A stretch of 64,000 bases of DNA from a virus. Lineage: Duplodnaviria; Heunggongvirae; Uroviricota; Caudoviricetes. Below the pieces are notes generated by a model. It had not been told where the DNA came from. It ran no database searches and saw nothing but the letters and a program-made list of their open reading frames with translations. Position 1 is the stretch's first letter. Every line of letters starts with the position of its first letter. The position numbers and the translations under genes are program-made. Shown here piece by piece: positions 7,705 to 46,686 of this stretch. The stretch lies in the IMG/VR virus record IMGVR_UViG_3300042868_014220; one strand, written 5' to 3'.

Positions 7705-8181
7705 TTATCTTATTTTCCAGGCTCCGTTGATGTGTTTCTTCATTTGTTTACCATCGGCAAGGTTTCCGATTACAACACCATCTTTAATGGTAAACGCATG
7801 GCGATTAACAGTAACAATATAGGTCCCTACAGGATATCTTTTAATAAATGAACCCGTGGTTGTCCTCCTAAGAGTTTTCATACCTTTTACGGTTACATAA
7901 TATAACATTGTATTATGTTCTTCGGTAACGATTTCAATACTTTTACCGTTAATTTGTTCGTTGTTTTTAGATAACAAGTTTATTGTGCTTGCAAATCTAT
8001 AAACACCTTTTTTATTGTTTCTACAGAATTTTTCTTTTGTGAATTTGTGTGCAGAATCATAATCCATATCAGCTGCGGTTGCGATTGCTCTTACAACACA
8101 ATCATTATCTTCAGATTTTGCAATTACAGATTCTGATATTCCTTTGATTACTTCTCTTGATGATATATATCCCTTATTCAT
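7705..8181 (-). CDS. Hypothetical protein
   Basis: Protein-like ORF between tRNA-Ser and ferritin gene. Confidence 0.5.
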   Translation of the reverse strand: MNKGYISSREVIKGISESVIAKSEDNDCVVRAIATAADMDYDSAHKFTKEKFCRNNKKGVYRFASTINLLSKNNEQINGKSIEIVTEEHNTMLYYVTVKGMKTLRRTTTGSFIKRYPVGTYIVTVNRHAFTIKDGVVIGNLADGKQMKKHINGAWKIR

Positions 8182-9721: not shown

Positions 9722-9803
9722 TGGTTAGAACAGGATTCGAACCTGTGACAATACAACCTTTACAGGGTGACATAACCTCTTTGCCATTACGTATTACCTA
9801 ACC
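9722..9803 (-). tRNA. Type II tRNA, anticodon probably GTA (second Tyr-like) with imperfect anticodon stem
   Basis: Acceptor GGTTAGG/TCTAACC, T-arm ACAGG-TTCGAAT-CCTGT, loop CTGTAAA, long variable region. Confidence 0.45.
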
Positions 9804-9898: not shown

Positions 9899-9974
9899 GG
9901 TGACTAACGGGAGTCGAACCCGTGACCTCTTGAACCACAATCAAGTGCTCTAAACCAACTGAGCTATAGCCAAC
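9899..9974 (-). tRNA. tRNA-His (GTG) with encoded G-1
   Basis: Anticodon stem-loop CTTGA-TTGTGGT-TCAAG; extra 5' G opposite C73. Confidence 0.75.
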
Positions 9975-9980
9975 ATGTTT

Positions 9981-10073
9981 GCTGATTAAAAAGGATTCGA
10001 ACCTTAATCCTACTCCCTATTGTCTTCGGTTAAGAATATCGTCGGGTGGAGTGCTCCATTACACTATAATCAA
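9981..10073 (-). tRNA. Atypical elongated tRNA-like gene (93 nt) with ~20-nt insert in anticodon/variable region
   Basis: Acceptor TTGATTA/TAATCAG, D-arm GTGT-AATGGA-GCAC, T-loop TTCGAAT intact; no canonical anticodon arm found. Confidence 0.35.
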
Positions 10074-10122
10074 TCGGATGCTTCGAATCATCCATTCTCA
10101 AGGTAATTAATCTTGAGTTTTG

Positions 10123-10232
10123 CAGTCAGGACAGGATTCGAACCTGTATGTGATTTGACATGCTTTTTTATAATGCTTCCTAAATCACTTATCCGCCTTC
10201 AGTTTTTGCGTCTACCATTCCGCCACCTAACT
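10123..10232 (-). tRNA. tRNA-Leu-like gene with ~27-nt insertion (110 nt)
   Basis: Acceptor AGTTAGG/CCTGACT, Leu-type D-arm TGGCGGAATGGTAGACGC, T-arm ACAGG-TTCGAAT-CCTGT; internal GTGATTT...AAATCAC hairpin. Confidence 0.4.
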
Positions 10233-10293
10233 AAATTCTAATTCTATACAGTCACAACATGGGACCCTATGAATTAGTAACAGTCTCACCTCG

Positions 10294-10384
10294 TAGTCAG
10301 TAGAGGATTCGAACCTCCCATCTATGTGGCTACCGTATTTGTGGTGACTCGAACACCGCCTCTAAGACTGACCAACATCCGACT
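10294..10384 (-). other. tRNA-like element with two T-arm modules (double-T-arm), no anticodon arm
   Basis: Acceptor AGTCGGA/ACTGACT; hairpins GGTG-TTCGAGT-CACC and GGAGG-TTCGAAT-CCTCT. Confidence 0.35.
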
Positions 10385-10511
10385 ATTTTGAAAAGATATA
10401 TGGTGTCGCTCCACAGCCTCTACAACCTAAGGATTTTGCTCAGAAGGGATATTATCCGCTCCGTACTTATCCGAGTTGCTAACCCTGTCCTTTCGAGACA
10501 GATATCTTTTG

Positions 10512-10584
10512 TGGTACGAACTGGAATCGAACCAGTGGCACAAGGATTTTCAGTCCTTTGCTCTACCTACTGAGCTACCATACC
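10512..10584 (-). tRNA. tRNA-Phe (GAA)
   Basis: Anticodon stem-loop AAGGA-CTGAAAA-TCCTT; D-arm TAGCTCAGTAGGTAGAGC. Confidence 0.8.
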
Positions 10585-10797: not shown

Positions 10798-10863
10798 TAG
10801 TCAATACAGGATTCGAACCTGCCCTTGGTAATTACTCCCGTGGTGCCGCTCCACTAATTGACT
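10798..10863 (-). other. Short (66 nt) degenerate tRNA-like element
   Basis: Acceptor AGTCAAT/ATTGACT, D-arm GTGG-AGCGGCA-CCAC, T-arm GCAGG-TTCGAAT-CCTGT; anticodon arm absent. Confidence 0.3.
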
Positions 10864-12988: not shown

Positions 12989-12991
12989 ATT

Positions 12992-13083
12992 TCATTATCG
13001 CTTCAGCCACATCGGGAAAGACGCCTCCCCCGCGTTGTTTAAGTGTATATCTTGCGTCGTATCTCACTGAGCTACGATAATGA
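12992..13083 (-). other. tRNA-like element with 9-bp acceptor stem and non-canonical T-loop (possible pseudo-tRNA)
   Basis: TCATTATCG...CGATAATGA terminal helix; internal TAGCTCAGTGAGA D-arm-like segment. Confidence 0.3.
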
Positions 13084-13087
13084 TTTG

Positions 13088-14801: not shown

Positions 14802-14815
14802 ATTATTTTTTTTTG

Positions 14816-14890
14816 TGGAGACAATGGGTATCGAACCCACCTCAAAAACATTGCAAGTGTTTTTCGCCAAGCCTTGGTACATTTGCCCCC
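14816..14890 (-). tRNA. tRNA-Ala (TGC) with G3:U70
   Basis: Acceptor GGGGGCA/TGTCTCC with G3-U70 wobble; anticodon stem-loop AAACA-CTTGCAA-TGTTT; atypical D-arm. Confidence 0.6.
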
Positions 14891-18198: not shown

Positions 18199-18288
18199 TA
18201 GTCAGGACAGGATTCGAACCTATAATCCGTTCTATCACCGTTTCTAGGGGATTCGAACCCCGATAGATAGGACAACCGTCACCTGACT
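18199..18288 (-). other. tRNA-like element with two T-arm modules (double-T-arm), shares acceptor AGTCAGG/CCTGACT with Leu-like genes
   Basis: Hairpins CGGGG-TTCGAAT-CCCCT and ATAGG-TTCGAAT-CCTGT; no D-arm or anticodon arm. Confidence 0.35.
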
Positions 18289-18572: not shown

Positions 18573-18702
18573 CAGTCAGGACAGGACTCGAACCTGTATA
18601 TCAACCTCTGCGACAGAGCAATTCTTATTATATGGTGCGACCCATTTTTATTATTGTTGTAGTTGACTATCTCTGTAGCGTCTACCATTCCGCCACCTGA
18701 CT
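18573..18702 (-). tRNA. tRNA-Leu-like gene carrying ~43-nt insertion in anticodon loop region (130 nt)
   Basis: Acceptor AGTCAGG/CCTGACT, Leu-type D-arm TGGCGGAATGGTAGACGC, anticodon stem ACAGAG/CTCTGT enclosing 43 nt, variable arm, T-arm ACAGG-TTCGAGT-CCTGT. Confidence 0.45.
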
Positions 18703-20334: not shown

Positions 20335-20411
20335 TGGGCCTAGAGGGATTTGAACCCCCGTGTAACCAGCTACGCTTTCTACGCATTATGAGTGCGAGGC
20401 GATATAGGCCC
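20335..20411 (-). other. Degenerate tRNA-like element (intact acceptor and T-arm, possible CAT anticodon loop, D-arm missing)
   Basis: Acceptor GGGCCTA/TAGGCCC, T-arm GGGGG-TTCAAAT-CCCTC. Confidence 0.3.
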
Positions 20412-28876: not shown

Positions 28877-29551
28877 ATGATTAAGATAGATAAAGATTTC
28901 AAAGGTGATGTGTGGATTTTTTCTGACCCCCACTATAACCACACAAACATTTGTCGTGGTATTACCAACTGGCGTTTACTTAACGGAGAAATTCCAGTTG
29001 ACCAAACTCGTGATTTCCCGAGCTTAGAAAAGATGAACTCATCAATTGTTAACAACATCAACGAAGTTGTTATGCAGGATGACATTTTAATTTGTCTTGG
29101 TGATTGGAGTTTTGGTGGTTTTGAATCTATTAGAGAATTTTGGGATAGAATTGTTTGTAAAAACATTCACTTAATTTTTGGAAACCACGACCATCACATT
29201 GAAAACAACAGACAAGGTTGTCAGGGTTTATTTAAGAGTGTATCTCACTACAACACATTAAAGATTGGTGAATACACATTCCGTTTGATGCACTACCCAA
29301 TCAGTTCTTGGGACGGTTTAAATAAAGGTGTTATGCATCTTCACGGACACTGTCATCTTCCAACCAACTTAAGATTTGGTAAGGGACAAAGAATGGACGT
29401 TGGAATGGATGGTCACCCTGAGTTCCGACCATACCACATTGTTCGTGAAGTGGTTCCTTTGTTAAAGAACAGACCAAAAGTATCCGAAATGGATAATGAC
29501 CACCACACAGATGAAATCACAGGTAGAGAAAAAGATAATAAATTTTTATAA
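28877..29551 (+). CDS. Calcineurin-like metallophosphoesterase
   Basis: GDWSFGG, GNHDHH, LHGHCH motifs. Confidence 0.7.
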   Translation: MIKIDKDFKGDVWIFSDPHYNHTNICRGITNWRLLNGEIPVDQTRDFPSLEKMNSSIVNNINEVVMQDDILICLGDWSFGGFESIREFWDRIVCKNIHLIFGNHDHHIENNRQGCQGLFKSVSHYNTLKIGEYTFRLMHYPISSWDGLNKGVMHLHGHCHLPTNLRFGKGQRMDVGMDGHPEFRPYHIVREVVPLLKNRPKVSEMDNDHHTDEITGREKDNKFL

Positions 29552-46011: not shown

Positions 46012-46686
46012 ATGAAAATTGTATTCATTTCAGACACGCACGGTAAACATAAGATTTTAACATCTAAAGCGTATAATAACATCTTGGGTGAAGGTTTTTG
46101 TTTGGTTCATGCGGGAGATTGTACCAATGTTGGTAAAACTCACGAAATTAAGGAATTCTTGGATTGGTTTTCAGATACACCATTCACACATAAAATATTC
46201 ATTGCAGGTAATCACGATTTTGGATTTGAAAAGAACCACGATATTGACCAAGAATATAAAGACAAAGGTGTTCATTATCTTTTTGATAGTTCAGTTGAAA
46301 TTGAGGGAATTAAGTTCTACGGAAGTCCGTGGCAACCTGAATTTTATGATTGGGCATTCAACCTACCAAGAGGTGAAAAACTAGCTGAAAAGTGGGCTAA
46401 AATCCCTGAGGATAGTGATATCGTAATTACACACGGACCAGCATACGGAATGGTTGATGCCACAATCCAAGGTACGAATGTTGGATGTCACGATTTATTC
46501 CACCGACTTATGAAAGTTCAACCAAAAATTCACGTTTGTGGACACATACATTGGTCTTACGGTCAAAAATCATTTAATGGTATTGAGTTCTTAAATGCGT
46601 CTACCTTAAATGAAAGATATGAATATGAGAACAAACCAATTGTAATTGAATTTAATCCTGAGACAAAAGAAATTGACTATTTATAA
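46012..46686 (+). CDS. Calcineurin-like metallophosphoesterase
   Basis: FISDTHG, GDCTNVG, GNHD motifs; TATATTTG immediately upstream. Confidence 0.7.
   Translation: MKIVFISDTHGKHKILTSKAYNNILGEGFCLVHAGDCTNVGKTHEIKEFLDWFSDTPFTHKIFIAGNHDFGFEKNHDIDQEYKDKGVHYLFDSSVEIEGIKFYGSPWQPEFYDWAFNLPRGEKLAEKWAKIPEDSDIVITHGPAYGMVDATIQGTNVGCHDLFHRLMKVQPKIHVCGHIHWSYGQKSFNGIEFLNASTLNERYEYENKPIVIEFNPETKEIDYL

Follow-up and report, generated by a model that had tools for sequence, protein, structure and literature searches.

What is the product of a gene that has the ends of a transfer RNA and no part with which to decode? This question is raised by a locus in the stretch of DNA analysed here (64,000 nucleotides, called the window below), a phage genome of ~30% G+C that encodes a thymidylate synthase and endolysin-like proteins. 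Between 7560 and 16170, 23 canonical tRNA genes of the window form an array that lies entirely on the minus strand. They serve all 20 amino acids, and Leu(UAG) and Leu(UAA) are among the ARAGORN calls. Inside this array lies our gene, read on the minus strand from 10232 to 10123; its 110-nt RNA has an acceptor stem of 7 bp, a D arm of Leu type and a T arm. Its flanks match those of the 23 canonical tRNAs (U at -1 and N73-C-A-A on the 3' side). The original prediction had seen here a tRNA-Leu-like frame, shared with a second gene of the window and interrupted by a different, possibly intron-like, insert.

In RNA order, the 5' part of the element is AGUUAGG-UG-GCG-GAAUGGUAGA-CGC and the 3' part, after a 60-nt interior, is ACAGG-UUCGAAU-CCUGU-CCUGACU-G; all parts lie on the minus strand. 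The 5' acceptor strand AGTTAGG (10226-10232, RNA positions 1-7) pairs with CCTGACT, or CCUGACU in RNA (10124-10130), with one G.U pair at position 4, and is followed on the 3' side by the discriminator G73 (10123), C74 (10122) and then AAA. The D arm TGGCGGAATGGTAGACGC (10208-10225, 18 nt with U8 and G9 included) is of class II, or Leu type, GCG-GAATGGTAGA-CGC, with A14, A15 and G18G19 present, and differs by 3 mismatches from the D arms of the tRNA-Leu genes found in the window itself. The T arm ACAGG-UUCGAAU-CCUGU (DNA ACAGG-TTCGAAT-CCTGT, 10131-10147) is placed by Rfam and by pairing in homologs. Between the D and T arms, the 60-nt interior is made of three parts. A 19-nt purine-rich linker, AAAAACUGAAGGCGGAUAA (10189-10207), without a stable stem, takes the room of the 17-nt anticodon arm together with positions 26 and 44. 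It is followed by a 7-bp hairpin, P2 (10150-10188), in which GUGAUUU (10188-10182) pairs with AAAUCAC (10156-10150) around a 25-nt A-rich loop, where a class II tRNA has its long variable arm. Last comes an AU spacer (10148-10149), whose U is U48, the Levitt-pair partner of A15. The acceptor stem, the D and T arms, the hairpin and the missing anticodon stem had all been predicted, and all are there, on the minus strand.

Can such an RNA decode? The Rfam tRNA model RF00005 matches 10123-10232 end to end with 36.3 bits (gathering score 29), and does so by skipping the anticodon arm, which is replaced in the alignment by a 36-nt local end and a 21-nt insert. In fact, the 5-bp anticodon stem and the 7-nt loop with U33, anticodon and purine 37 that define a functional decoder are absent, and ARAGORN makes no call on the element whether or not introns are allowed. 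Both the MFE and the alifold structures show the tRNA frame plus the hairpin, with positions 26-44 essentially unpaired, and the folding energy of the interior is modestly better than that of shuffled sequences (z -1.39 for the element, family mean z -0.83). A tmRNA-like tag was not supported, because pair 3:70 is U:A and not G3:U70 and ARAGORN makes no tmRNA call; the sole window match to the Rfam tmRNA model is sub-threshold (17.1 bits) and lies elsewhere, at 14813-14890. Known ribozymes and other RNA families were rejected as well: across 9950-10520, no intron, ribozyme, riboswitch or phage sRNA model of Rfam 15 matched at E<=10, in a set that included hammerhead, twister, pistol, hatchet, HDV-like, C4 and YrlA models, and no family matched 16 loci with other interiors at E up to 0.1.

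A gene with no anticodon and no ARAGORN call could simply be a tRNA in decay, and conservation in related genomes bears directly on this. When the interior served as query, the same 60-nt core came up in 19 further places, on 10 viral and 9 metagenome contigs. Counting the window, the 20 places represent at least 8 unrelated flank contexts and 12 distinct sequences, which have a mean column identity of 97%. Variation is confined to the first two bases of the linker, which is otherwise invariant in the 12 distinct homologs, to one A-U→G.U change in the hairpin and to two positions of the loop. In every copy, each helix is paired: P2 is 100% paired, with the A-U→G.U change in two homologs, and the acceptor stem is paired in 12/12 distinct homologs, one of which (L137) has a compensatory change of acceptor register. 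Inside this class, covariation is almost nil, being limited to the single G.U change in P2. L103 and L138, two phages that share the element, have it at 96-98% identity, yet a comparison of 13-14 canonical tRNAs gives no more than 57-84%, with many compensatory changes in their stems. The frame itself has some latitude, since U14 replaces the universal A14 in 7/19 of the other copies, so the canonical tRNA core is not always kept. A decayed pseudogene is contradicted by the intact helices and the near-identical core in unrelated contexts, and we give it an almost negligible chance; the original claim that this is not random decay stands. Extreme conservation of the core could also come from recent horizontal spread instead of selection on every base. 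In the closest phage relatives, recognised by a ferritin-like neighbour that is 81-88% identical, the arrays carry other interiors and not that of the element.

The genes of the phage show no Shine-Dalgarno sequences (6/52, equal to background), and several ORFs have, by eye, TAnnTTTG-like boxes just upstream of their ATG (e.g. 7705-8181 and 28877-29551), which suggests Bacteroidota-type promoters with very short leaders. Together, these two features point to a Bacteroidota host. On the plus strand of the hairpin loop (10155-10174), two perfect sigma-70 hexamers occur as TTGACA-N8-TATAAT, at an impossible spacing; the sole base of the TTGACA hexamer that varies among homologs is the last one (A, C or G). 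We rejected a sigma-70 promoter here, and we take the motif as a coincidence because of the wrong spacing and because the host appears to use TAnnTTTG boxes.

The element is not alone in the window. The 18-nt D-arm string has exactly two copies, at 10208-10225 and 18678-18695, and no match in any of 100 shuffles even with 3 mismatches allowed. The second copy belongs to the predicted paralog (18573-18702, minus strand), which has the same frame with an AGTCAGG acceptor and an unrelated 80-nt core that is also found in another contig (L106). The two interiors, 60 and 80 nt, cannot be aligned and the frame is common to both, as had been noticed. ARAGORN calls the paralog as a tRNA-Ile(AAT) with a 45-nt intron, a call that relies on the stem ACAGAG/CTCTGT, which is lost in the L106 homolog.

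Seven further genes of tRNA shape, none of them canonical, came to light on this strand in a scan for T arms and acceptor stems combined with an Rfam scan. A third element at 18200-18288 (minus strand) has the acceptor and T arm of the 10123-10232 gene and a replaced D arm. Together with it, the genes at 9723-9803, 9982-10072, 10295-10373 and 10799-10863 (all minus strand) have good acceptor and T arms and aberrant bodies, and ARAGORN calls none of these five. Two of them contain a second, internal T-arm-like hairpin, GGTG-TTCGAGT-CACC in one and GGGG-TTCGAAT-CCCC in the interior of 18200-18288, and the gene at 10799-10863, just 65 nt long, has the palindrome GTAATTAC in the place of the anticodon arm. 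Another gene of tRNA shape, 76 nt long, lies at 20336-20411 (minus strand) and has the loop CTCATAA, with a CAT anticodon. It has no ARAGORN call, and a D-arm-like GTAGCTGGTTA is placed after its anticodon arm, not before; the tRNA array holds one ordinary tRNA-Met only. The 98-nt spacer between tRNA-Arg(UCU) and tRNA-Leu(UAG), at 12989-13086 (minus strand), has a closed branched fold whose stability far exceeds that of shuffled sequences (z -3.07, 0/200 shuffles) and matches no Rfam family. Another spacer, the 60-nt one at 10233-10294 between the 10295-10373 gene and the element, begins with ACGAGGTG, as does the ~57-nt spacer of tandem pairs in five other contigs (L123, L322, L332, L370 and L391).

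Do two such genes make a family? Conserved frames with differing interiors turned out to be kept in many other genomes, so that the family foreseen by the original prediction is real. An exact-frame scan of viral contigs with interiors of 25-85 nt returned at least 119 loci, plus 106 further DNA stretches. All loci together gave at least 244 exact-frame hits, at least 177 distinct elements and at least 154 distinct interiors; by crude 8-mer clustering, these interiors form about 113 unrelated sequence classes among the matches listed. With a relaxed frame, there are at least 343 distinct elements, 74-190 nt long, and ~220 such cargo classes among the matches listed. Retrieval by exact frame patterns biases the sample toward invariant frames, and the invariance of the frame is therefore partly built into it. 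The frame is specific to phages, and to uncultivated ones only: no GenBank phage carries it, and its 5' half is absent from isolate genomes and occurs in just 8 MAG contigs among 185,579 species genomes, three of them binned as Chitinophagaceae or Sediminibacterium. A copy of a host tRNA or an att site was rejected on these same counts. The cargo, for its part, was never found outside the frame. Our literature search found no description of the family, which is apparently a large and undescribed one of uncultivated freshwater phages.

These numbers bear on the idea of a tRNA-Leu gene whose removable, intron-like insert would leave a decoding tRNA. One could cite for it the Leu-type D arm, the length of the gene, which exceeds that of tRNA-Leu, and the T4 Rnl1-like RNA ligase encoded by the phage (32471-33724, plus strand). 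This ligase could form a tRNA-repair set with two calcineurin-like phosphoesterases, encoded at 28877-29551 and 46012-46686 (both plus strand). Yet the interior cannot form an anticodon stem-loop, even for the intron mode of ARAGORN, and no family member has one among the matches listed. The interiors form a continuum of lengths between 24 and 95 nt, with no peak at the size of tRNA-Leu and no tRNA-sized "empty" allele among the matches listed, and viral contigs hold no canonical tRNA-Leu body with this frame among the matches listed. Further, no model of an intron, group I included, or of a ribozyme matches, and the window already has tRNAs for all 20 amino acids, two for Leu included. We find it extremely unlikely that such an intron exists, and the proposal of an intron-like element, or of an insertion into a normal tRNA-Leu, is not supported. 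In fact, the "~27-nt insert" is a mere excess of length over a normal tRNA-Leu and has no mark of a discrete insert. What varies is a whole exchangeable module that stands in for the anticodon arm and reshapes the variable arm.

Unrelated as they are, the cargos share an architecture. In half of the classes (50%, compared with 26% of shuffles), a closing helix of at least 5 bp leaves exactly 2 nt up to the T stem. The pair that closes it is most often G-C, preceded by A in 63% and followed by A/U and then U, the last interior base being U in 95%; the junction consensus across the family is A, then the pair G...C, then AU and the T stem. We take this geometry to be that of the long variable arm of a class II tRNA such as E. 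coli tRNA-Leu, with U48 facing A15. Upstream of the closing helix lies a mostly unpaired, purine-rich segment whose commonest lengths, 16-19 nt, correspond to the space of the anticodon arm plus positions 26 and 44. Within classes, 7/8 double substitutions in predicted cargo helices are compensatory and 1 is disruptive, and several classes appear by eye to be pseudoknotted and to vary by compensatory changes (e.g. L172/L208 and L161/L183). The processing context is shared as well and is that of a tRNA, with U at -1 in 85% and C74 in 97% of the family. A TAnnTTTG box stands at -12 to -22 of 20/167 elements, compared with 3.5% of control windows.

Single classes show further variations. In one (L350 and the second element of L391), the D loop has a 32-nt insertion between AATG and GGTAGACGC, and the frame thus tolerates a payload at a second site. 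In three contigs with related cargos (L179, L180 and L177), a perfect 8-nt palindrome is altered and yet still palindromic, CCGCGCGG versus CCTCGAGG, which might be a sign of RNA-RNA dimerisation. Cargos are enriched in motifs of the RAGG and AGGTG types, though not in the stricter GG..GATA[AG] motif; mimicry of a Shine-Dalgarno sequence was rejected, given this and the phage's own genes, which have none.

An unpaired linker ahead of a helix might also be a seed, and the RNA could act as an antisense or guide RNA whose linker or loop pairs with phage, host or rival-phage RNA, the cargo setting the target. The mostly unstructured linker, commonly 16-19 nt, stands before the closing helix in 78/113 classes, the unrelated cargo classes are very numerous, and there is a precedent in C4 of phages P1 and P7, a regulatory RNA freed from its precursor by RNase P (PMC11143913). 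However, the whole 60 nt of our element are conserved and not merely a seed. Complementarity to the cargo did not exceed shuffled controls anywhere in the 64-kb window or within 8 kb of the copies elsewhere. A cis target was rejected, since the lone 10-nt match, in L032, is missing in the other copies with a downstream flank. Among 2.9 million viral contigs, none carries a reverse complement of the linker or loop, and 17- and 19-mers of these parts occur only inside framed copies and in four chance-like, same-sense matches to unrelated sequence (L314-L317). An antisense role is, in our estimate, quite unlikely.

Where do these genes sit? Clustering of 3,912 ORFs from 244 loci, all against all, places the family in very different phages, and several carrier contigs are longer than 160 kb, the longest having 281 kb. 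A conserved protein partner beside the element was rejected, because no cluster occurs in more than 33/244 loci. In every array examined, the element lies on the tRNA strand. In small phages, it lies on the strand of the genes, in the packaging or late region near terS and terL. This position between late genes, on their strand, is what would be expected if the tRNA-like fold served as punctuation, giving RNase P and RNase Z cuts that separate transcripts around an interior of mere filler. But filler would not stay 97% identical where tRNAs are 57-84% identical, some copies have a promoter box of their own, and two thirds of a set of near-identical phages are empty at the same site (see below). 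Punctuation is thus highly improbable as the function.

The cassette behaviour is clearest at one orthologous site, between two conserved genes and with flanks ~90% identical, where the frame stays while its interior is exchanged as a whole. The site is occupied by four unrelated cores (36, 43, 60 and 69 nt), the class of our element included, and the breakpoints are the boundaries of the frame. The same pattern of replacement is seen at three positions upstream of terL. An unbiased sample of the orthologous site, fetched via the neighbouring protein (93-100% identical), gave 79 near-identical phages: 52/79 are empty (...TAG/ACAC...) and 27/79 are filled with one or two tRNA-like genes, with 11 different cargos in the 27 filled sites. 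Immediately before position 1, every insertion brings TATATTTGCATT, which includes a -7 box of Bacteroidota type. Some tandems have as their second gene a canonical tRNA-Ile(UAU) with the body of a tRNA from L103 and a different acceptor stem. One tRNA-Ile(UAU) body with two acceptor stems implies modular recombination among these genes.

Could the cassette then be selfish, acting only as DNA, with the frame serving for recombination, through short arms of homology or as a folded site, around a functionless RNA? Presence and absence at one site, replacement of the cargo at frame boundaries, near-identical copies in very different phages and chimeric tRNA genes, such as the tRNA-Ile(TAT) body with two acceptor stems, are all compatible with it. 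The conserved parts, however, build a tRNA fold (T loop, G18G19, U48), both the acceptor stem and the cargo helices undergo compensatory changes, and a promoter box travels with the insertions. Nor is there a target duplication, an inverted repeat beyond the acceptor stem or a linked recombinase. A cassette that is purely selfish is therefore very unlikely.

A last alternative takes the Leu character of the frame at face value. The element would be a leucine-accepting tRNA mimic, kept in shape by LeuRS charging and acting via LeuRS, EF-Tu or aminoacyl transfer, and the cargo would only modulate the action of the charged RNA. The element has A15, U48, G18G19, the GGUAGA loop and P2 in the variable-arm position, and across the family A15-U48 (U48 in 95%), G18G19, the GGUAGA D loop and A73 (87%) make up the E. 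coli-type identity set. The D arm is of Leu type and not arbitrary, and what is lost or remodelled, the anticodon and variable arms, is just what LeuRS does not need. In fact, minimalist tRNA-Leu (Larkin et al. 2002), with acceptor, D and T arms, A15-U48 and G18G19 and without anticodon and variable arms, is still charged by LeuRS (PMC9976931). Those are laboratory constructs; the element likewise keeps these arms but has G73, an antideterminant for E. coli LeuRS (PMC9976931). G73 is also found in 11% of the family, A and G alternate at 73 inside one cargo class, seven copies of the element's class have U14 and U13 in the D loop, and many elements with the same acceptor and T arm have non-Leu D arms. 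These identity rules are those of E. coli and may not be those of a Bacteroidota LeuRS. Leucine charging is an attractive idea, yet it is weakened by G73, by the alternation at 73 and by the U14 variants, and we consider it unlikely.

To explain these results, we propose, with moderate confidence, that the gene makes a small RNA in a tRNA frame, processed and stable, and that the core, which can be exchanged, is its functional part. The acceptor stem, T arm and Leu-type D arm would form the "top half" of a tRNA, with its elbow, in an RNA that would not decode. The anticodon arm would be replaced by the 19-nt single strand and the variable arm enlarged into the 7-bp hairpin with its 25-nt loop. 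Given its position in the array, on the tRNA strand and with the same 5' and 3' context, the RNA would most likely be excised by RNase P, 3' maturation and CCA-adding enzymes as a stable product of ~110 nt. The 60-nt core would be the cargo, a sequence-specific module that presumably binds some host or phage partner. While the frame would remain constant among phages, the cargo would be exchanged by recombination at the frame boundaries, and the gene would act as an accessory, horizontally moving "RNA moron". We speculate that such a moron plays a role in host takeover, anti-defence or inter-phage competition.

How does such an RNA compare with known systems? The element belongs to none of those considered here, by sequence or by defining features. 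YrlA and tmRNA are similar in that they do not decode and join a tRNA-like acceptor and T-arm module to another domain; in YrlA the ends are on the opposite side, at the Ro-binding stem, and tmRNA requires G3:U70 and a tag reading frame. A further parallel is offered by phage RNAs that RNase P processes, such as C4, in which variable loops set the specificity of immunity; unlike the element, C4 has no full tRNA frame, and the element does not match the Rfam C4 model. In function, no design comes closer than the tRNA scaffold that Ponchon and Dardel reportedly engineered in 2007 for recombinant RNA expression. Its acceptor, T and D arms serve processing and stability, as we propose here, and an arbitrary structured RNA replaces the anticodon arm. 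That scaffold is man-made, whereas the element is natural, has its cargo mostly at the variable-arm position and belongs to cassettes swapped between phages.

Among natural phage RNAs, RNAC and RNAD of T4, its species 1 and 2 RNAs, are the closest in setting: they are small stable RNAs from a phage tRNA cluster, on the tRNA strand, and RNAC ends in a T-arm-like hairpin, CCGGG-TTCGAAT-CCCGG. Their function is still not established (PMC9697503; PMC3014915). They have no sequence similarity to the element, however, and no family with exchangeable cores has been described for them; by eye, RNAC has neither the perfect 7-bp acceptor complement nor the Leu-type D arm. The present family goes beyond such T4-type stable RNAs in having a constant frame and hundreds of conserved, unrelated cores, in both small and very large phages. 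In its genetics, the family rather recalls moron or anti-defence (anti-CRISPR) loci, which show presence and absence, unrelated alleles at one site, a promoter of their own and horizontal spread. Those loci encode proteins, whereas the payload here is RNA, small and structured, within a tRNA frame that stays constant.

For genome annotation, these genes carry a warning, as they are missed by ARAGORN or scored as tRNA by Rfam, though unable to decode. More broadly, and more tentatively than for the element itself, we envision that the nearly invariant, tRNA-Leu-derived frame could be a portable module of expression, processing and recombination for more than 200 unrelated RNA effectors in freshwater phages that probably infect Bacteroidota. 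If so, these effectors might act as inhibitors or aptamer-like decoys against factors of host defence or translation, would be gained, lost and swapped as protein anti-defence genes are, and would form a new class of RNA-based accessory genes. If the cores are indeed effectors, the family would do with RNA what accessory and anti-defence genes do with proteins, and nature would have its own version of the laboratory tRNA scaffold. The family would then also be a large untapped catalogue of small RNA folds, each with a built-in expression handle.
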